From positions 1 to 61,382 of the forward strand of contig CAWDXL010000006.1 of the NCBI GenBank assembly GCA_963806325.1: a stretch of 61,382 nt of DNA, written 5' to 3'. This document shows, one piece after another, positions 19,849 through 61,382 of this stretch. The position numbers were made by a program, and so were the translations under genes. The notes beneath the pieces are model-generated. The model was not told the DNA's origin. It made no database searches and was given only the letters and a program-made list of their open reading frames with translations. The DNA is from Candidatus Parcubacteria bacterium (GTDB taxonomy: Bacteria > Patescibacteriota > Minisyncoccia > Phycocordibacterales > JAKAEA01). Positions within the stretch are counted from its first letter, which is position 1, and every line of letters starts with the position of its first letter.

Positions 19849-20454
19849 ATGAAAAATTCAGGACTGGCGATAAGCTCGGGAATATTTAGCCCGGAATCAA
19901 ATTTTAAAGAGCGTTTTTTCTCGGATTATAAGAAAATAAGGCACATTGTCGGGCATTTTCGCGGCCTTGGCTGCAAAATTGTGCTCACGCAGGGTTCATA
20001 CGATATGGTGCACATTGGCCACGCCCGCTATCTTGAAGAGGCCAAGCGTCACGGAGATTTTCTTATTGTCGGTGTCGACAGCGACGAAAAAATCAGATTT
20101 CGAAAAGGACCCGATAGGCCGGTAGTGCCCGAAGCGGAGCGCCTTGAGATGCTGACGCATCTGCGGTGTGTCGACGCAGTCTTTCTAAAACAGCTCAAAG
20201 CAAAAAAGTGGGAGCTCATCAGGACAATCGAGCCTGACGTGCTTGTCGCGACCAAGGAAACATATAACGATAAGCAGCTGAAAGAGCTGGAAAAATACTG
20301 CGGCAAAATTGTCGTGCTCAATCCTCAGGCTACGACATCAACAAGCGCAAAAATCCGCCGCCTTCAGATGGGTACCGCCCAAAAAATAGGGGAAGCGCTC
20401 ACGCCAAAGCTTGTAGCTACTATCGAAGAAGTGTTAAATCAGATTAAGTCTTAA
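19849..20454 (+). CDS. Cytidylyltransferase-like (RfaE/TagD family) nucleotidyltransferase
   Basis: GSYDMVHIGHARYL, GVDSD, KGPDRP..ERLEML and TTSTSAKI. Confidence 0.85.
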   Translation: MKNSGLAISSGIFSPESNFKERFFSDYKKIRHIVGHFRGLGCKIVLTQGSYDMVHIGHARYLEEAKRHGDFLIVGVDSDEKIRFRKGPDRPVVPEAERLEMLTHLRCVDAVFLKQLKAKKWELIRTIEPDVLVATKETYNDKQLKELEKYCGKIVVLNPQATTSTSAKIRRLQMGTAQKIGEALTPKLVATIEEVLNQIKS

Positions 20455-20508
20455 TATAAATTTTTTCTAAATTAGAATCAGAAATAGGCTCATTGTTTTA
20501 TAAAACTC

Positions 20509-21429
20509 ATGGAAAAAATCATTATTGCCTATGTACCCGTTTTGCATGATGGTTACCGGAAATTTTTTGAACGGCACAATGATGCATCTGTAATTTATAT
20601 TTTAGGCAAAGATCTCATCAGCCAAGTCTACTATCTTTCAAAAGAAATTCGCGAGCTCGATCCTGAGCTTATGGTGAAAGCCATTGATTCTCTGAAAATC
20701 ATTCCTCATGTACAGGTAAAAATCATAGCAGAAGAAATTCTTAAAGATTTTGCAAAAAAAGATGCAAAAAAGCTTGAAATAATTATGCCGGACGAGGATG
20801 TCTCAAGGCTTATTGCTGAAAAATATTTAGGAAATCAGCAGGTGATTTTTGACACCATATTTCTCCGCTGGGACAAGCACAATACGGTGCTCGAAAAGCC
20901 TGTCATCCCCGACAATATGATATCGAAAAAAGAGTTTGATATTAAGATTTTAAATATAGCAGAAAAAGAAGCTGAAAAAAGTTCCGACTGGTGGCGCAGG
21001 GTGGGGACGGCGGTTGTGCGAGACGGTAGCATTATCATTCAGACTCACAATGCTCATGTGCCGTCGGAACATACGCCATATGTAAACGGTGACCCTCGCA
21101 ATGCATTCAGCAAAGGGATAAATATTGAGCTTGGCACGAGCATTCATGCCGAAGCTTGCGCTGTCGCAGAAGCTGCTCGAAAGGGAATTACCCTTGAAGG
21201 AGCTGATATGTACGTCTCCGTTTTTCCATGTCCGCCGTGTGCCAAGCTTATCGCTTATTCAGGCATCAAAACACTCTATTGTGGCGGGGGATACGGAATC
21301 CTCGACGGCCAGGATATTTTGAAATCAAAAGGTGTGAAAATAATTTTTGTAGAAAATGAAAAAGAATTAGGCAAAGAAGGTGATTCAAATAAGAAAACAG
21401 AAAAAAAGTGGGAGGGGTATAAAAAGTAA
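20509..21429 (+). CDS. dCMP deaminase-family protein with extra N-terminal domain
   Basis: HAE and PCPPC zinc motifs; SSDWWRRVG; N-terminus IIIAYVPVLHDGY. Confidence 0.8.
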   Translation: MEKIIIAYVPVLHDGYRKFFERHNDASVIYILGKDLISQVYYLSKEIRELDPELMVKAIDSLKIIPHVQVKIIAEEILKDFAKKDAKKLEIIMPDEDVSRLIAEKYLGNQQVIFDTIFLRWDKHNTVLEKPVIPDNMISKKEFDIKILNIAEKEAEKSSDWWRRVGTAVVRDGSIIIQTHNAHVPSEHTPYVNGDPRNAFSKGINIELGTSIHAEACAVAEAARKGITLEGADMYVSVFPCPPCAKLIAYSGIKTLYCGGGYGILDGQDILKSKGVKIIFVENEKELGKEGDSNKKTEKKWEGYKK

Positions 21430-21440
21430 AGAATAAAAGA

Positions 21441-21471
21441 ACCGCCGACTGTGCAGTGCACAGTCGGCGGT
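21441..21471. terminator. Perfect 14-bp hairpin between convergent genes
   Basis: ACCGCCGACTGTGC-AGT-GCACAGTCGGCGGT. Confidence 0.7.
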
Positions 21472-21497
21472 CATGTTCTCCTTTTTAACCCTTATTT

Positions 21498-22136
21498 TTA
21501 TGTTGTTGAGGCGACGAGTCCTGGCACCTTACGATCTTTGACCCGATCTCGATCTTCGTCCGTGAGTCCAGTTGTGTCGCCGTTTGCCAACCGGATCTTT
21601 TCCATGACGATTGCGGACATGAGACTCCTTGCATCAGCATCCGCTCCCTTATAAAAGGGTGATTCCACTCGGCCAGTGCCGTCGGGTACCATGATGTGGA
21701 AATGAAGATGTTGGATGCTTCCTGCGCCCAATCTCGCATCTCCATCGCGAACGAGTTCGCCCCGGCTTGTATAGCCGAATTGCGCTTTCAGCTGTCGCTT
21801 CATCGCGAGGAATGCCCGTTCTTCGCGTTCGGTCAGCTCTACTGAGTCGGTGACATGCCGTTTCGGAGCAAGCATGATATGGAGCTTGGTGAATGCTTCC
21901 GGCGACGTGCTATACCATGATCGGAAGAGGTCGCTCTCCATGATCAGCTTGTTTCGATTGGAATCGAATTGGCAGAAAGGGCAGTGACCTGAGATTGCAT
22001 CTGTGATTGCGTCGCAATATTGCCTGTATGACCGCGCTCGTGAGATGCATACCAGAGTGGTAGAATCTGTGACTCCAGGGATGGACAATTGTCCGATGAC
22101 TCCTGGCAACGTTAGGACAGCGTCTTGCTGCTCCAT
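21498..22136 (-). CDS. HIT-family protein 1
   Basis: CPFC, KLHIMLAPKRH and IQHLHFHI; GAGGAG SD before ATG at 22136. Confidence 0.75.
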   Translation of the reverse strand: MEQQDAVLTLPGVIGQLSIPGVTDSTTLVCISRARSYRQYCDAITDAISGHCPFCQFDSNRNKLIMESDLFRSWYSTSPEAFTKLHIMLAPKRHVTDSVELTEREERAFLAMKRQLKAQFGYTSRGELVRDGDARLGAGSIQHLHFHIMVPDGTGRVESPFYKGADADARSLMSAIVMEKIRLANGDTTGLTDEDRDRVKDRKVPGLVASTT

Positions 22137-22217
22137 AAATATCTCCTCAAAAAGGTTAAAAATAACAATGCGCACTCAACGCAACTGCGATTAAAATAAA
22201 CACTTTCAGGAGAAAAG

Positions 22218-23184
22218 TCAATAATTTTCCTGTTTCTTTTTCGATTGGCCAATTTTGAATCGGACCGGTTCTGCATCGGGATTATCTGCGTCAGGTACGA
22301 TAAACTGAGCATGCAGATGTCTCACTGTTCCGCCGGAATATCGCATGTCGCCGAAACGCATAGCAAACCCTCCGCCTAAAATTCTATTTGATCGCTCTGC
22401 CCACTGAAAGAGTTCAAAAAGCTCCGCGCCTTCTTCGGGCGTAAGCTCACCGAGGCGCTCCGCGTGTTTTTTTAAAATAGCCAAAAGGTGCAATTTTGTG
22501 CCTTCATAAGGCCACTGATTTTTGGTCAGTATCCAGTATTTTCCTTCTTTCAGGATTGGTTCTTTGTGATATTTTCTCAGATTTTCTACACAGAAAGGGC
22601 AGTGTTTTTCATTCTTGATATTTTCCATGACTTCTCGCTGATCGTCGTGTCGAGCATTTCCAAGAAAAACAAAATTTGAGGCTTCCTCGGCATTTTTTAC
22701 ATACTCCTCAAAGCTATAATTGTACTGATTTTTTTCATCAGCAGAATGCTTTTCTGAGGCTGTTAGTTTCCAGTGTTTTGGATCATACGCTGGGAAAAAA
22801 GCATCCCCATCTGCTGTGGTGTGGACTTTTGTAATATACATTTTATCAGCATAGGGAAGCGCGAGAATATAAATATATGCTCCGCCAATGACGAAAACTT
22901 CTTCAGTTGCTGCTGCTTTTACGGCTTTCTCGAACGTATCCACAACGATGCAGTCGGGAGCTTTAAAATCTTTTTGTCTGGTGATGATAATATTTTGGCG
23001 GTCTGGAAGCGGCTTTCCGAGGCGGGCAACTATAGATTCATAAGTTTTCCTGCCCATAATAACCGAATGGTTTTTTGTAAGAGAAGAAAAATGTTTCAAG
23101 TCGGCGGATACACGCCACGGCAGCTCATTGTTTTTTCCAATGACGCCATTTTCTGAAAACTGCTGCAATAATAGAAATACTCAT
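22218..23184 (-). CDS. folA: Dihydrofolate reductase fused to a C-terminal HIT domain (indel near the start)
   Basis: MSISIIAAV/ENGVIGKNNELPW, IMGRKTYES, LPDRQNII, VIGGA and GDAFFP, then CPFC...VRHLHAQF in one frame. Confidence 0.9.
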
Positions 23185-23188
23185 GAGA

Positions 23189-24103
23189 TTAAATAGCGAC
23201 CGGAATGCCTTTAATGCCGGGGTGCGGATTGTAATCCGACAATTCGAAATCTTCTTTTCTGAAATCAAAAAGATCTGTTTTGTTTTTGTTGAACGTGACG
23301 GTGGCAAGCGGTCGAGCTTCGCGTGCAAGCATCGTCTCTACAGCCGGCACTTGGTCAACATATATATGCGCATCGGAAAAGCTGTGAATGTATTCGTAGG
23401 GAATGGTACCGGTGACATGGGCGAGCACCACAGTGAGTGCGGCGTATTGCACCATATTTGACGGTACGCCAACGGGCACATCAGCCGAGCGCTGAAACAT
23501 GTGCAGCGAAAGCTTGTTTTCAATAATGCGGACATGGATCCAGCCGTGGCATGGACAGACGACAACTTTCTGCCGTTTGCCTTTGCCTCGGCCCATATAT
23601 TGCGGAATCCACGGCGTAATAAAATGCGTGCGCAGCTGCGGCTCTTCTTTGATCTGCTCCACGAGATGCTTGAATTGATTGAATGTGCCGCCATCAATCA
23701 TCGGAAAATCATGAAAGGCTGCGCCGTATGAGCCGGGGCCGAGATCGCCGGCCGGAAGCCCGCGCTTAGCGCATTTTTCTGGCGTGGCCCACGACTTCCA
23801 CCAATAGCAGCCGAATTTTTCCAATTCTTCCGTGGTGCGCGCACCGTTGATAAAGCCAAAAATTTCAGCGATAGCCTGCTGCCAGACGGTAACCGGCAGA
23901 TTTTCTGAAACTTTTGGATTCATATTGCGTTCGTTGATGATAGGAAAGCCATTGTCGAGCTTGAAGTGAAGCGGTGCAGGACCTATGAGAGTGAGAGCGT
24001 CGACACCCTGCTGGCTCGGCGTGCGTACGCCTTTTTCGAGAATATCTTTTAAAAGCCGTTGATATTGGCTGTCGGCGGTGCGCTCTGCAAGTGGTTTATA
24101 CAT
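23189..24103 (-). CDS. thyA: Thymidylate synthase
   Basis: GPGSYG, PCHG, QRSAD..GVPSN and DAHIY motifs. Confidence 0.93.
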   Translation of the reverse strand: MYKPLAERTADSQYQRLLKDILEKGVRTPSQQGVDALTLIGPAPLHFKLDNGFPIINERNMNPKVSENLPVTVWQQAIAEIFGFINGARTTEELEKFGCYWWKSWATPEKCAKRGLPAGDLGPGSYGAAFHDFPMIDGGTFNQFKHLVEQIKEEPQLRTHFITPWIPQYMGRGKGKRQKVVVCPCHGWIHVRIIENKLSLHMFQRSADVPVGVPSNMVQYAALTVVLAHVTGTIPYEYIHSFSDAHIYVDQVPAVETMLAREARPLATVTFNKNKTDLFDFRKEDFELSDYNPHPGIKGIPVAI

Positions 24104-24155
24104 GGCCTTTAAATTATGAATAGGTGTCTTTATTGTATCTGCTTATAAAAATATG

Positions 24156-24185
24156 AAAAGCCCTGGTTTTTGATCAGGGCTTTTT
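24156..24185. terminator. Hairpin terminator
   Basis: AAAAGCCCTG...CAGGGCTTTT inverted repeat. Confidence 0.65.
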
Positions 24186-24221
24186 GAGGAATAAGGAACT
24201 TACTTATGTAGACTGCAGGCT

Positions 24222-24937
24222 TCAGATTGCTCCAGCGCGACGGGCAAGCATCATCGATCCTCGAAGCAGGGAATCTGGTGTGCCGAGATCAATGTACGAA
24301 TTGGGCGGCAGCATGGTATGGGTCATGAGACCTTCTTCCACATACTGTCGCGAAATATCACCAATATGAATTTCGTTCTGAGTCTTGGTGGCCAGGGCGC
24401 GGGCTCTAGCGTAGACATCGGGCGGGAAGAACCATGTGGCCGTCTGGATGATATGGCTGAACTCAGCCTTTGTTTTTTGCGGATATCAACAACTCGATCA
24501 CCATCTACCTTGACCTGTCCGTATTTTGATGGATCGTCAATGCCGTCTAATGACATTGTCCAGATGTGCGGCGGAACGATATTGGTGAAATTAAGCGGAT
24601 GCAGATACAAGCTGTCGCCCAGCATGACTACAAACGGCTCGTTGCCCGTGTAGTGGCGGGCAATGCAGAGTTCTCGGCCGGGGCCGTTCACTTCGCGTAC
24701 ATAGGTATAGCAGATATGACACCCGAAACAGCGGCCGTCTTCCAAGATTTCTAAAATTGTTTCTGGATGACGGTTGTTTAGCATGACGAGGATATCATCA
24801 ATGCCGCTCGCCGCAAGCGTCTGGACAACATGCGAGATCATCGGCTGATCATACACTGGCAAAGCATGCTTGTTTTGCAAGCCTTTGGCGCAGGACAGCC
24901 TCGTTCCTTGGCCACCGGCAAATACAACTGCTTTCAT
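24222..24937 (-). CDS. Sugar-phosphate nucleotidyltransferase (RmlA-like), frameshifted near 24465
   Basis: AGGQGTRL, NKHALPVYDQPMI, LGD, PSKYG and C-terminal YIDLGTPDSL. Confidence 0.8.
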
Positions 24938-24938
24938 C

Positions 24939-25496
24939 TTAATCCTTTCTGCCAAGTGTTTTAGACAAGGCGCGTAAAAGCGTGTTACGAGCTTTCTTGA
25001 TGGGAACTGGAAACACGATAAGTTTTGGTTTGTCTTCGGTTATTGTAAAGAAATGTCCGAGCTTGTCAAAGCCGCGCAATGGATCGCTCGGCTGAGAAGG
25101 GACGATATGCCAATGAAGGTGAGCAATGCTTCCTTCTGAGCCTGCCCCGGTCTGAAGAAAAATTTCAATGCCTGCGCCATGATATAATTTTTGCAAAGCT
25201 TCCGCTGCGATCACGATCAATTCTTCGCGATCTTTTATTTCCTGAGCAGACTCTGTTCCGAGTTTTATTACGTGTCTTTTCGGAACGATCATAGTGTGCC
25301 CTTCGAATTTTGGATACATATTCACTATCCATCTGTAGTTTTTATTTTCGACCAAGATGCTGTCAGAGTATTTCACCGACTGTTTAGCCATATTTTTTGC
25401 GTTGCAGAAAGGGCAGTCTGAATCCGTTTTTCTTCCCTTGTACTTATTCCTGAACGGGGTGTAATAATAGGCCATATTTTTAGGTGTGTATGCCAT
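24939..25496 (-). CDS. HIT-family protein 3
   Basis: CPFC, N.YPKFEGHTMIVPKRH and SIAHLHWHIVP. Confidence 0.85.
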   Translation of the reverse strand: MAYTPKNMAYYYTPFRNKYKGRKTDSDCPFCNAKNMAKQSVKYSDSILVENKNYRWIVNMYPKFEGHTMIVPKRHVIKLGTESAQEIKDREELIVIAAEALQKLYHGAGIEIFLQTGAGSEGSIAHLHWHIVPSQPSDPLRGFDKLGHFFTITEDKPKLIVFPVPIKKARNTLLRALSKTLGRKD

Positions 25497-25576
25497 AATA
25501 GTACGCACTACTAGAGTAAAAGCAATATGTGATAATATAGTTGTATTATCCAATTTGGTTTCTAACAGTACTGTCA

Positions 25577-26752
25577 ATGAAAGACAAGCAAATAGAAAAG
25601 TTGATCAAAGAAGAGAAGACCCGTCAAAAAAAAGTTATCAATCTTATCGCGTCTGAAAATTATGTTTCCGACGATGTGCTCAAAGCGCTCGGCTCCGAGC
25701 TCACCAATAAATACGCCGAAGGCTATTCCGGCAAGCGCTACTACGGCGGACAAAAATTTATCGATCAGATCGAAGACTTGGCAAAAGCGCGGGCGCTCAA
25801 GCTTTTTAAATTGTCGCCTGAAAAATGGCATGTGAATGTCCAGCCTCTTTCCGGCTCACCGGCCAATCTTGCGGTATATGTTGCGCTCGTTCCTGCGGGC
25901 GGAAAAATCATGGGCATGAGTCTCGATAATGGCGGACATCTCACACACGGTCACAAAGTATCAGCGACGGGGAAATTCTGGGTGCAGGTACCATACGGCG
26001 TCCATGAAAAGACGGAACAGATTGATTATGATGAAATAAAAAAGATTGCGGAAGAACAGAAGCCGAATGTCATTGTTGCCGGCTTTACAGCCTATCCCCG
26101 CAGAGTGGATTTCAAGAAATTCCGGGATATTGCCGATGCGTGCGGCGCAATTTTAATGGTGGACATGTCGCATTTTGCCGGTCTTGTAGCGGGCGAAGCA
26201 TATCCAAGTCCGTTTGAGTATGCTGATGTGGTGACGACGACGGTTCACAAAACGCTCCGCGGCCCGCGCAGCGCACTCATTTTTGCTAAAAAAGATGCAC
26301 GAGAATTAGATAAAAAAATAGATAAGGCGGTATTTCCAGGCCTTCAAGGCGGACCGCATATGAATCAAATTGCCGCAGTTGCAGTCGCTCTCAAAGAAGC
26401 AGCTACTCCTGCGTTTAAAAAATATGCAAAGCAAATCGTGAAAAATGCTGCGGTGCTCGGAGAGGAATTGAAAAAGAAAGGCTGGAAAATTGTTTCCGGC
26501 GGCACCGATAGCCATCTTTTGCTCGTAGACACGTGGATGAATGGCTTGGGAGTATCAGGCAAAGAGGCGAGCGAGCTTTTGGAAAAGGCCGGCATCATTG
26601 TCAATAAAAATACGATTCCCGGCGAAAAGCGCAGCCCAATGGATCCGTCAGGCATCCGCCTCGGTACTGCTGCCGAGACGACTCGCGGCAAGAAAGAGAA
26701 GGATATGAAAAAAATCGCCGAGCTGATTGATAAAGTGCTGAAGAAGAAGTAA
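25577..26752 (+). CDS. glyA: Serine hydroxymethyltransferase
   Basis: LIASENY, NKYAEGY, GGHLTHG, TTTVHKTLRGPR and FPGLQGGPH. Confidence 0.97.
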   Translation: MKDKQIEKLIKEEKTRQKKVINLIASENYVSDDVLKALGSELTNKYAEGYSGKRYYGGQKFIDQIEDLAKARALKLFKLSPEKWHVNVQPLSGSPANLAVYVALVPAGGKIMGMSLDNGGHLTHGHKVSATGKFWVQVPYGVHEKTEQIDYDEIKKIAEEQKPNVIVAGFTAYPRRVDFKKFRDIADACGAILMVDMSHFAGLVAGEAYPSPFEYADVVTTTVHKTLRGPRSALIFAKKDARELDKKIDKAVFPGLQGGPHMNQIAAVAVALKEAATPAFKKYAKQIVKNAAVLGEELKKKGWKIVSGGTDSHLLLVDTWMNGLGVSGKEASELLEKAGIIVNKNTIPGEKRSPMDPSGIRLGTAAETTRGKKEKDMKKIAELIDKVLKKK

Positions 26753-26760
26753 CAAAATCC

Positions 26761-26783
26761 TAAGGTCACAATTTGTGACCTTA
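26761..26783. repeat. GGTCACAATTTGTGACC palindrome, copy 1
   Basis: TAAGGTCACAA-T-TTGTGACCTTA, 11-bp arms. Confidence 0.9.
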
Positions 26784-26795
26784 AACAAAACGCCC

Positions 26796-27311
26796 TCATT
26801 GGGTGTTAAATCCTATTGGAGGTTTTTCCGGTATCTCTGGTTGAGTCATTATTTCGCGCAGTGCATCGAAGACTATTTTGAATTGTTTATTATATTTTTG
26901 TTCAAGTTCTTCAAGTTTATAAGCCAGATGGGTACTATTTGAAAGTATATTCCGAAGCTGAATAAAAGTTTTTATAATTGTAATGCTTACTTCTACCGCA
27001 TGTTGATTGTTTAGAATTGTTGCTACCATAAGGGCTCCATATTCAGTAAAAGCATACGGTAATTGTGATGAGAATTTTAAGGCAGAGAGGTGGTCACATT
27101 TTGTGACCACCTCAAGTTTTTCTGATTGAGTTAGTTGAAACATGAAATCAGCTGGAAATCGGGCACTATTACGTTTGGTAGCTTGATTTATAACTTTAGT
27201 AGTAGTGTTGTAAAGTCTTGCTAGATCATAATCAATAATTACCTTTTGATTTCTTAGTAGAAGAATAACCCGATTGATTTTTTCAGGGAAAATTATTTGT
27301 GGTGAATTCAT
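26796..27311 (-). CDS. ORF6N (KilA-N-like) DNA-binding protein
   Basis: LRNQKVIIDYDLARLY, INQATKRNSARFPADFMFQLT and PYAFTEYG...KPPIGF. Confidence 0.9.
   Translation of the reverse strand: MNSPQIIFPEKINRVILLLRNQKVIIDYDLARLYNTTTKVINQATKRNSARFPADFMFQLTQSEKLEVVTKCDHLSALKFSSQLPYAFTEYGALMVATILNNQHAVEVSITIIKTFIQLRNILSNSTHLAYKLEELEQKYNKQFKIVFDALREIMTQPEIPEKPPIGFNTQ
27087..27113. repeat. Palindrome copy 2, inside the ORF6N coding sequence
   Basis: GAGGTGGTCACA-TTT-TGTGACCACCTC, encoding EVVTKCDHL. Confidence 0.85.
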
Positions 27312-27367
27312 ATGATTTTTTGATAAACAGTATCATATTGAATATGAAGAAAATCTCAAGAAAAGAT

Positions 27368-27402
27368 AAAACTTGAGGTCACAATTTGTGACCTCAAGTT
27401 TT
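27368..27402. repeat. Palindrome copy 3, between the divergent ORF6N and dut starts
   Basis: AAAACTTGAGGTCACAA-T-TTGTGACCTCAAGTTTT, 17-bp arms. Confidence 0.9.
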
Positions 27403-27444
27403 GAATAATCTTTAAAATTCTCAGCAGTATGCTAGGATGACTAC

Positions 27445-27873
27445 ATGACACTTGAGCTAAAGGTTAAAAAAATCGTCTCTGACGCAAAACTGCCCGCCTA
27501 TGCACATCCAGGTGATGCGGGGTTTGATCTATATACTTCGGAAGCTATTTCTCTAAAGCCTGGAGAGCGGGTGCAGGTGCCTACAGGTATTGCCATGGAA
27601 ATACCTGATGGGTTTGTTGGCCTCATTTGGGACAAGAGTGGTTTGTCGCACAAGTTTGGTCTGAAAACGCTTGGCGGCGTCATTGATGCCGGCTATCGCG
27701 GCGAGGTGAAGGTGGGTATGATAAACTTAAGTAAAGAGCTTTATACATTTGAAAAAGGGCACAAAGTTGCCCAGATGATTATTCAGAAAAGGGAAGAGCC
27801 AACAATCATCGAAGTATCAGAGCTCGATGATTCGGAGCGGGGAACAGGCGGATTTGGCAGCACGGGAAAATAA
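27445..27873 (+). CDS. dut: dUTP diphosphatase
   Basis: GDAGFDL, KSGL, GVIDAGYRGE and RGTGGFGSTG. Confidence 0.97.
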   Translation: MTLELKVKKIVSDAKLPAYAHPGDAGFDLYTSEAISLKPGERVQVPTGIAMEIPDGFVGLIWDKSGLSHKFGLKTLGGVIDAGYRGEVKVGMINLSKELYTFEKGHKVAQMIIQKREEPTIIEVSELDDSERGTGGFGSTGK

Positions 27874-58517: not shown

Positions 58518-58869
58518 GGCTCTTATCCCTGAAATTATGTTAAACACACTAAATCACAAGCGGATATAGCAAGCTTCTCTATAAAAAAGGCTTACTACTC
58601 CGCGCAAGCGGTTTTTTGTTTTAATTTCAGACCGACCGTAACTTAAAAATATCCTCGCAGTCTCGATTTTCGTCGGACTGCATTAGAAGGATCATTCTGT
58701 CGCAGCACACAAAACTTTTTTCTGGACTAATAAATGGTTCAGAGAGGGTCTTTTCAAGTGTTGCAGACAGAGTAGGTAAACAAACAAAAACAATAAATTG
58801 TTATATGTTAGAAAATGGATTCTATGTAACAGAGTAAAACGATATGTGGTTCTTACATTTCCTAATAGG

Positions 58870-61382
<2,513 letters not shown>

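Follow-up and report, generated by a model that had tools for sequence, protein, structure and literature searches.

A conserved thymidylate gene module in Patescibacteria that pairs a divergent ThyA with a HIT protein, a nucleotidyltransferase and an extended dCMP deaminase

Known thymidylate routes and the Patescibacteria locus

Thymidylate synthesis is among the best-studied and most drug-targeted of pathways. In the routes represented by T4 (gp56-Cd-Td-Frd), by human (DCTPP1-DCTD-TYMS) and by Gram-positive bacteria (ComEB-ThyA), C is converted to U at the level of the deoxynucleotide, and the product feeds the thymidylate synthase (TS, or ThyA). We describe here a related locus, at positions 19,849 to 27,873 of a 61,382-nucleotide stretch of DNA from a Candidatus Parcubacteria bacterium (GenBank assembly GCA_963806325.1, contig CAWDXL010000006.1). 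The whole stretch is referred to as the window, and is contig C6 of a 921-kb, 23-contig, 85%-complete genome of Patescibacteria type. Very probably the locus represents, in this genome, a thymidylate module that is conserved among Patescibacteria. It is arranged as two convergent operons, with four core genes that occur all-or-none: a nucleotidyltransferase (NTase), a deoxycytidylate (dCMP) deaminase with an extra N-terminal domain (N-domain), a divergent ThyA, here called ThyA-B, and a HIT protein, here called HIT2, which is dedicated to ThyA and dihydrofolate reductase (DHFR). On the same reading a second HIT protein (HIT1) is a duplicate of HIT2, and a third (HIT3), together with an RmlA-like gene, forms an inserted pair.

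The module resembles the dCTPase/deaminase/TS routes in having a Cd-like zinc deaminase, with C-to-U conversion of a deoxynucleotide feeding ThyA, and in the clustering of ThyA, DHFR, serine hydroxymethyltransferase and dUTPase. It differs from them in having an HxGH NTase and a HIT protein where they have a MazG or dUTPase-type dCTPase, in the orphan 140-residue domain of the deaminase, and in a ThyA that lacks two phosphate-binding arginines. The adjacency of thyA and folA, with the thyA stop in the window only 5 bases before the folA start codon, recalls the thyA-folA operon and the DHFR-TS fusions of protists and plants. However, the recurrent fusion partner of DHFR in the module is a HIT domain and not TS, and a HIT2-ThyA fusion also exists. 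To our knowledge there is no precedent for a tie between a HIT protein and ThyA or DHFR.

No description of the module was found in the literature covered by full-text searches. As far as can be told, the following are new: the frequency of the DHFR-HIT2 fusion, the HIT2-ThyA fusion, the co-occurrence of three module components in the same 22 genomes as against canonical ThyA, the separation of the HIT3/RmlA-like pair from the module, and the order-specific exclusion of thymidylate kinase (Tmk).

Gene identities were taken from a listing of the open reading frames (ORFs) and from Pfam and NCBIfam profile scans of the window. One operon carries the NTase and then the deaminase, the other ThyA, DHFR-HIT2 and HIT1, and GlyA and Dut lie alongside. 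The cluster is flanked by nusG and rplK upstream and by argS downstream. Its members are:

19849-20454, plus strand: NTase of the HxGH family (CTP_transf_like, PF01467, 76 bits against a cut-off of 21), core module gene 1
20509-21429, plus strand: N-domain and dCMP deaminase protein of 306 residues (PF00383, 63 bits), core module gene 2
21440-21472, no strand: strong palindromic terminator-like hairpin between the convergent operons, with a 15-pair stem (10 G-C pairs) followed by a T-rich tail
21498-22136, minus strand: HIT1, stand-alone, with HLHFH and CPFC motifs (PF01230, 28.8 bits)
22218-23184, minus strand: DHFR-HIT2 fusion with an HLHAQ motif (PF00186, 191 bits, plus a HIT match), core module gene 3
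23189-24103, minus strand: ThyA-B (PF00303, 204 bits), core module gene 4
25577-26752, plus strand: GlyA, serine hydroxymethyltransferase, a variable member of the extended cluster (PF00464, 556 bits; NF000586, 549 bits)
27445-27873, plus strand: Dut, dUTPase, a frequent member of the extended cluster (TIGR00576, 150 bits against a cut-off of 103)

The initial annotation of this region had named a cytidylyltransferase-like gene, a dCMP deaminase, three HIT domains, DHFR, thyA, an RmlA-like gene, glyA and dut, and all of these are present where it had placed them.

Distribution of the module

Sixty relatives were searched with the HIT2 domain, making 61 genomes with the window's own. HIT2 is present in 24 of the 57 genera of the order to which the window belongs. 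Stretches of up to 20 kb around 20 HIT2 matches were then compared with the window proteins using tblastn, and 19 of the 20 loci are alike: nusG-rplK, then the NTase-deaminase pair, convergent with HIT2-(DHFR)-ThyA, then GlyA-Dut-ArgS. HIT2 remains next to ThyA even in those loci where DHFR has moved. The exception is genome G039, which has lost thyA, the deaminase and the NTase, retains a remnant of HIT2 with an in-frame TAA (locus L024, G039:C66, 2816-3262), and has tmk between glyA and dut.

The wider phylum was scanned with a seven-sequence HIT2 alignment, using one genome for each GTDB species. This gave 174 HIT2-type stretches, of which the best 80 were examined; together with the 20 loci from the order they make up the 100 related loci referred to below. 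HIT2 lies directly after ThyA in all 80, a convergent deaminase is present in 78 and the NTase in 77. For the order the corresponding counts are 20 of 20 for ThyA beside HIT2 and 19 of 20 for the NTase beside the deaminase, and over the 100 loci the convergent deaminase-NTase pair is present in 97. The 80 loci come from bins labelled Saccharibacteria, Woesebacteria, Pacebacteria/Paceibacterota, Kaiserbacteria, Uhrbacteria, WWE3 and Microgenomates, and in many lineages the cluster is set among the housekeeping genes nusG, rplK and argS. The variable neighbours are DHFR, Dut (no more than 7 kb from HIT2 at 42 of the 80 loci), GlyA and Tmk. The initial annotation required that HIT genes be conserved near thyA and folA. 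The shared gene order, in both the order and the phylum, clearly shows that they are, as do fusions of HIT2 to DHFR and in one case to ThyA. The cytidylyltransferase-like gene and the deaminase, which the annotation had listed in the same cluster, also form part of this unit.

In an even sample of 400 genomes from the phylum, about 15 have a strong HIT2 match, and the module is therefore widespread but patchy. No HIT2 homolog was found in 50,697 phage records, and on this basis the module is not a phage cassette.

The 61 genomes contain two kinds of ThyA, as judged by PF00303 scores: 12 canonical, with 318-428 bits, and approximately 22 divergent, with 138-226 bits. The divergent ThyA, HIT2 and the deaminase N-domain are found in the same 22 genomes, and none of the 12 genomes with canonical ThyA carries either HIT2 or an N-domain deaminase.

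Clustering of the neighbours within 7 kb at the 80 phylum loci, done to look for further conserved partners such as an acceptor kinase, yielded Tmk, Dut, a NadD-like transferase, housekeeping genes and nothing else. The NadD-like protein is an HxGH nucleotidyltransferase of the nicotinate-nucleotide adenylyltransferase type encoded just upstream of thyA, about 1.5 kb upstream of HIT2, in 38 of these loci (L041-L120; for example L067:7160-7750), and its position is probably clade synteny. NadE, RecR, DprA and TopA are also frequent near the module.

Core proteins and the routes they suggest

The ThyA of the window scores about 204 bits against PF00303, compared with 318-428 for the canonical ThyA of relatives, and 170 bits against TIGR03284, for which the cut-off is 108. 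An alignment of 78 ThyA-B orthologs to E. coli ThyA, checked against the PDB alignment, shows that C146, H147, E58, Y94, W80, W83, R166, S167, D169 and N177 are invariant, and H207 invariant or nearly so. By contrast, Arg21 is absent from all 78, being replaced by Q (69), G (8) or A (1), and Arg127' is Thr in every one. The site in which four arginines hold the phosphate of deoxyuridylate (dUMP) is thus incomplete: R166 is kept and R126' is R or K, while R21 and R127' are gone. A conserved insertion, PQYxxRGxGKxQK, forms a basic loop just before the catalytic PCH. From the residues conserved, the chemistry of dUMP methylation looks intact, with two of the four phosphate ligands gone.

A divergent ThyA found together with a T4-like deaminase and nucleotide enzymes resembles the sets used by phages for DNA hypermodification, in which case ThyA-B would act as a hydroxymethylase, with the remaining genes handling a modified pyrimidine nucleotide. 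We consider this highly improbable. DHFR is adjacent or fused, with GlyA beside it, and DHFR would be needed only if dihydrofolate is produced, which argues for true methylation. Furthermore, N177 and all the residues of the methylation cycle are kept, HIT2 lacks homologs in the 50,697 phage records, and in many lineages the cluster is set among housekeeping genes.

The DHFR-HIT2 protein consists of a DHFR domain at residues 5-158 and HIT2 at approximately 185-300, with the HIT match at 224-287. Taken alone, the HIT2 domain scores 18.4 bits against PF01230, below the cut-off of 21.5, whereas HIT1 (28.8) and HIT3 (48.8) are above it. The AlphaFold2 model (mean predicted local distance difference test, pLDDT, of 92) has the HIT fold, and matches 3r6f, 3ano, 3o0m, Hint1 and Fhit with a Foldseek probability of 1.0; the best matches include the zinc-bound HIT proteins 3r6f and 3o0m and the diadenosine tetraphosphate (Ap4A) phosphorylase Rv2613c. 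Across 81 HIT2 sequences C34, H79, H128 and H130 never vary, and P35, F36 and C37 hardly do. HIT2 shares with Hint, Fhit, Rv2613c and GalT the fold, the CxxC and two histidines that are zinc ligands in other HIT proteins, and the nucleophile motif HxH. The fifth residue of the motif is Q, as in GalT, in 52 of 80 orthologs (HxHxQ) and H in the other 28 (HxHxH). HIT2 differs from these proteins in forming a distinct clade, in an extra N-terminal helix, and in TM-scores of only about 0.45-0.54 to solved structures. Structure does not support a GalT-type assignment: HIT2 is a single domain of 150 residues where GalT has a tandem half-barrel, there is no GalT in the top 50 Foldseek matches, and the GalT sequence matches reach only E = 0.97. 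We also rejected the idea that the Q-or-H residue tracks the presence of tmk, as the trend goes against what one would naively expect and phylogeny is a confounder.

Fusions of HIT2 were sought by running a HIT2 profile against 1.84 billion representative proteins, which gave 214 clusters at E <= 1e-30. Approximately 41 of the best 150 representatives are 280-340 residues long with the HIT domain at the C-terminus, which is the DHFR-HIT2 layout, and all seven of those scanned with Pfam have an N-terminal DHFR domain. The DHFR-HIT2 fusion is thus a common form of the HIT2 family. One metagenomic protein of 464 residues (P0139) is a HIT2-ThyA fusion, its ThyA being of the divergent type, and other architectures from metagenomes include DHFR-HIT-HIT and tandem HIT-HIT (P0211, 429 residues; P0172, 272 residues). 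The recurrence of these fusions gives good support to a physical working partnership between HIT2 and the ThyA/DHFR pair.

Fusion to DHFR and ThyA proves proximity and not a shared substrate. HIT2, perhaps with the NTase, could instead be an accessory or control subunit of a ThyA-DHFR-deaminase complex, binding or turning over a signalling or by-product nucleotide, such as a dinucleoside polyphosphate (NpnN) or a nucleotidylated protein or cofactor, and leaving the intermediates of the pathway untouched. The nearest HIT structures are indeed of generic Hint, Fhit and Ap4A-phosphorylase types, and T4-type dCMP deaminases are allosteric. We regard such a role as unlikely, because the nucleophilic histidine and the zinc-type residues are strictly conserved in the 81 HIT2 orthologs, and because the all-or-none occurrence of four genes with a remodelled ThyA phosphate site exceeds what regulation usually demands.

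In the deaminase protein, residues 1-140 form the orphan N-domain, of alpha/beta type, and residues 143-290 a dCMP deaminase domain of the T4 type (Pfam match at 143-259). Its best PDB matches are T4 Cd (1vq2, Foldseek 2.5e-10) and the cyanophage protein 4p9c. The zinc residues H213, E215, C241 and C244, in HAE and PCxxC motifs, are invariant in 79 orthologs. It scores only 44 bits against the ComEB equivalog TIGR02571, for which the cut-off is 219, and carries the N-domain in addition. The AlphaFold2 model (pLDDT 90.5) shows the N-domain as a five-strand beta-alpha fold with pLDDT above 90. A profile of this domain found no sequence match in Pfam or the PDB, and Foldseek run with the full-length model returned deaminase matches only.

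The NTase has the motif VHIGH. Like CCT, ECT, GCT and HldC, the enzymes of the Kennedy, teichoic acid and ADP-heptose pathways, it is a Rossmann-type HxGH transferase; the closest PDB entry is human ethanolamine-phosphate cytidylyltransferase (ECT; 3elb, 4e-20), followed by HldC (5x9q), CCT and TagD. It differs from them in falling below every equivalog cut-off, including that of TIGR02199 (RfaE domain II, 111 bits), and in being translationally coupled to a dCMP deaminase rather than to lipid or envelope genes. The predicted catalytic residues are kept in all four core proteins: the CxxC/His and HxH of HIT2, the HxGH of the NTase, the HAE and PCxxC of the deaminase, and C146, E58, N177, R166, S167, D169 and Y94 of ThyA.

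In the window's order tmk is missing from 20 of the 22 module genomes and from 13 of the 39 others (p = 1.2e-5), a contrast that holds within genera. Of the two remaining genes one has an in-frame TGA and the other is a 25-bit match. A hidden Markov model built from the Tmk of 15 relatives found only an adenylate-kinase-like protein (23 bits) in the window genome. Non-module genomes of the order have canonical thyA beside tmk, within about 3 kb (G005, G007, G011, G017, G018, G020, G032 and G037), often with a protein of 370-390 residues made of two dCTP-deaminase/dUTPase-like (Dcd/Dut-like) halves, and the two types of cassette swap even within a genus (g8: G010 as against G007 and G011). A dCTP deaminase scores above its cut-off in only one of the 22 module genomes, and ribonucleotide reductases of classes I, II and III are all missing from 16 of them. 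Ribonucleotide reductase class, considered as a clue to the source of dCTP, shows no correlation with the module. As a separate observation, five genomes of the phylum have a Tmk domain inside frames of 737-791 residues, that is, Tmk fusions (G277:C1:262468-263022, G364:C1:252275-252835, G123:C1:333028-333597, G377:C1:298035-298604 and G402:C1:84297-84866).

The cultured Saccharibacterium Southlakia has the order tmk-dcd-folA-thyA, and all four of these genes are non-essential (PMC10633639). This is the only Tn-seq (transposon sequencing) study of Patescibacteria, and the strain used has the canonical cassette and no module (PMC10633639).

One use of the NTase and HIT2 would be to supply dCMP in two steps. 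The NTase would convert dCTP and a phosphorylated acceptor to dCDP-X and pyrophosphate, HIT2 would hydrolyse dCDP-X to dCMP and the acceptor phosphate, and the dCMP would feed the deaminase, with ThyA-B an ordinary dUMP enzyme making free thymidylate (dTMP). This is simpler than processing on a carrier throughout, and T4 gp56-Cd-Td and human DCTPP1-DCTD-TYMS are functional analogues. The module genomes use dCMP deaminase mostly without dCTP deaminase, the alternative cassette of the order and of Southlakia is tmk-dcd-folA-thyA, and in other parts of the phylum tmk and dut are often found near the module, which fits a free dTMP product. However, HIT2 is co-transcribed or fused with ThyA/DHFR, and not with the NTase or the deaminase. 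The strict need for a distinct ThyA subfamily, with canonical ThyA never found alongside the other three genes, is left unexplained, as is the local absence of tmk. Finally, in the 16 genomes that lack ribonucleotide reductase, deoxycytidine nucleotides must come by salvage and dCMP is directly available, so that such a supply is not needed. On balance we consider it doubtful.

We propose, tentatively but as the likeliest of these readings, that the pyrimidine deoxynucleotide instead passes through the pathway as a 5'-nucleotidyl conjugate, which the NTase forms and HIT2 breaks. The NTase would load dCMP from dCTP onto a phosphorylated acceptor to give dCDP-X. The deaminase would then turn C into U, with its extra domain perhaps holding the handle or the NTase, and the remodelled ThyA-B would methylate the deaminated conjugate. 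Lastly, HIT2 would strip off the handle by means of its invariant histidine nucleophile, releasing dTMP, or the diphosphate dTDP if phosphate is the acceptor. The operon order and the fusions (NTase with deaminase, and HIT2 with ThyA/DHFR) match a sequence of loading, deamination, methylation and unloading. The loss of R21 and R127' and the basic loop beside the catalytic cysteine also favour a conjugate, as do the lack of tmk in 20 of 22 genomes and of ribonucleotide reductase in 16 of 22. If it is correct, and we hold it as a possibility rather than an expectation, processing on a carrier would account for the distinct ThyA subfamily, for the pairing of HIT2 with ThyA/DHFR and of the NTase with the deaminase, and for the local absence of tmk. 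It would imply that many Patescibacteria make their thymidine nucleotides on a carrier and that, in the window's own order, where tmk and ribonucleotide reductase are missing, these may be released directly as dTDP by phosphorolysis; this more specific form is speculative.

Several points weigh against this proposal. There is no biochemical precedent known to us for such a route, nor do we know of a thymidylate synthase that accepts 5'-substituted dUMP. Published mutagenesis of the L. casei and E. coli enzymes reportedly shows that R21 and R127' tolerate substitution, and their loss in ThyA-B may therefore be neutral drift. No gene for the acceptor phosphate is conserved among the neighbours within 7 kb at the 80 loci. 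The third residue of the HIT motif (Q, H or N) follows no obvious pattern. Comparison of the N-domain with the NTase, of which it might be a degenerate copy, gave no significant similarity: hhalign returned E = 0.065 and 0.85% probability, confined to the surroundings of an HxGH-like PVLHxGY, and there are no Pfam or PDB matches. The absence of tmk is also local to the window's order: at the scale of the phylum 9 of 15 module genomes keep tmk, compared with 281 of 385 others (p = 0.37), and at 46 of the 80 phylum loci the module has tmk no more than 10 kb away. For this reason the module cannot be taken as a general replacement of Tmk.

Neighbouring genes, assembly quality and significance

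Within the cluster, and outside the module proper, are three further genes:

24222-24937, minus strand: RmlA-like NTP_transferase, a short sugar-1-phosphate nucleotidyltransferase (PF00483, 70 bits, profile positions 1-160)
24939-25496, minus strand: HIT3, with HLHWH and CPFC motifs (PF01230, 48.8 bits)
26796-27311, minus strand: ORF6N-domain gene between glyA and dut (PF10543, 92 bits)

HIT1, HIT2 and HIT3 all carry CPFC and an intact HxH, with mutual identities of 24-30% (E 3e-11 to 4e-8). HIT1 and HIT2 are 24% identical (E 3e-11). When all HIT-like ORFs of the loci were placed in a tree, the HIT1 type came out as the sister clade of HIT2, which supports the paralogy suggested earlier from shared motifs. 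About 15 of the 100 related loci have a HIT1-type gene adjoining HIT2. By contrast HIT3, its 111 clusters of homologs and the two generic HIT genes of this genome all fall outside the HIT1/HIT2 clade. The shared N-terminal CPFC, which had been read as a sign of kinship among the three, is not diagnostic; zinc-bound HIT proteins (3r6f, 3o0m) are among the best structural matches of HIT2.

HIT3 belongs to a separate and common HIT family of Patescibacteria, with 3o0m, 6af2 and the Ap4A phosphorylase 3ano as its closest PDB entries. In two of three long contigs a HIT3-type gene is followed by an NTP_transferase of 234-244 residues, among envelope or unrelated genes and with no thyA nearby. No RmlA-like homolog or HIT3 ortholog was found in the 100 related loci. 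In the window the HIT3 stop abuts the start of the RmlA-like gene, and a terminator-like hairpin and a promoter-like site lie between the pair and thyA. On these grounds the two genes form an independent transferase-HIT pair that has landed between thyA and glyA. The RmlA-like gene, whose product has about 238 residues once a frameshift is bridged, encodes a short NTP_transferase of generic type and not RmlA proper; it scores 69-76 bits against TIGR01207 and TIGR01208, for which the cut-offs are 320-360.

The initial annotation had taken the three HIT domains and both nucleotidyltransferases as one salvage supercluster, freeing (deoxy)nucleoside monophosphates from NDP-sugars, CDP-alcohols or NpnN for use by ThyA. 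The HIT domains are certainly related and share CPFC, and each HIT type is paired with a nucleotidyltransferase. However, the HIT3/RmlA-like pair has its own clade for HIT3 and its own putative transcription signals, and occurs elsewhere without thyA while being absent from the related loci, which breaks up the supposed supercluster. We therefore judge a single supercluster to be very unlikely. As a function, release of monophosphates or sanitising of the pool may fit the data, though it would leave the distinct ThyA subfamily of the module unexplained.

A single surplus base in a T4 run (23156-23159) interrupts the DHFR reading frame and puts the first strand, MSISIIAAV, out of frame with the remainder (SENGVIG onwards); the DHFR_1 domain scores 191 bits over residues 5-158. 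The RmlA-like frame is also broken, at an A6 run (24473-24478), and its C-terminal 80 residues continue in another frame. Comparison of the whole assembly with the ORFs of relatives turned up no fewer than 12 further conserved genes divided between two or three frames, in several cases at homopolymers (examples in G000 are C3:9129-10540, C15:13680-15952, C5:30910-32365 and C1:592-1720). Single-base indel errors seem to be numerous in this assembly, and because of these other split genes the two breaks are probably assembly errors rather than decay.

The ORF6N gene was not in the gene list of the initial annotation. A 17-bp palindrome, GGTCACA(A/T)TTTGTGACC, is present three times in the 921-kb genome and only within 26764-27393, with a copy to either side of this gene and a third inside it. 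The relative G010 (L030) has an ORF6N gene, 43% identical, at the same spot between dut and glyA. The gene and its palindromes have the look of a small cassette, regulatory or mobile, that brings its own operators; it is inserted at this position and outside the module. Elsewhere in the window a 23S rRNA gene (58864-61382) runs off the end of the contig. Model positions 1-2069 are spread over 2519 bases, and the gene may contain about 450 extra bases, as an insertion or intron.

The conserved module points to an undescribed step in making the DNA base T. A large uncultured group of ultra-small (CPR) bacteria has locked three extras, namely an NTase, a HIT enzyme and an additional deaminase domain, to a remodelled ThyA, and all appear from their sequences to be catalytically intact. 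Should synthesis proceed on a carrier, the thymidylate pathway would exist here in a new form, with the first thymidylate synthase to act on anything other than free dUMP. The genes are small, soluble and easy to express, which makes the question directly testable. Working out the function of the module would either uncover a novel way of making dTMP or dTDP or define a novel type of metabolic complex. It would also explain how DNA precursors are balanced in epibionts whose reduced genomes have no ribonucleotide reductase and, in this order, no thymidylate kinase.

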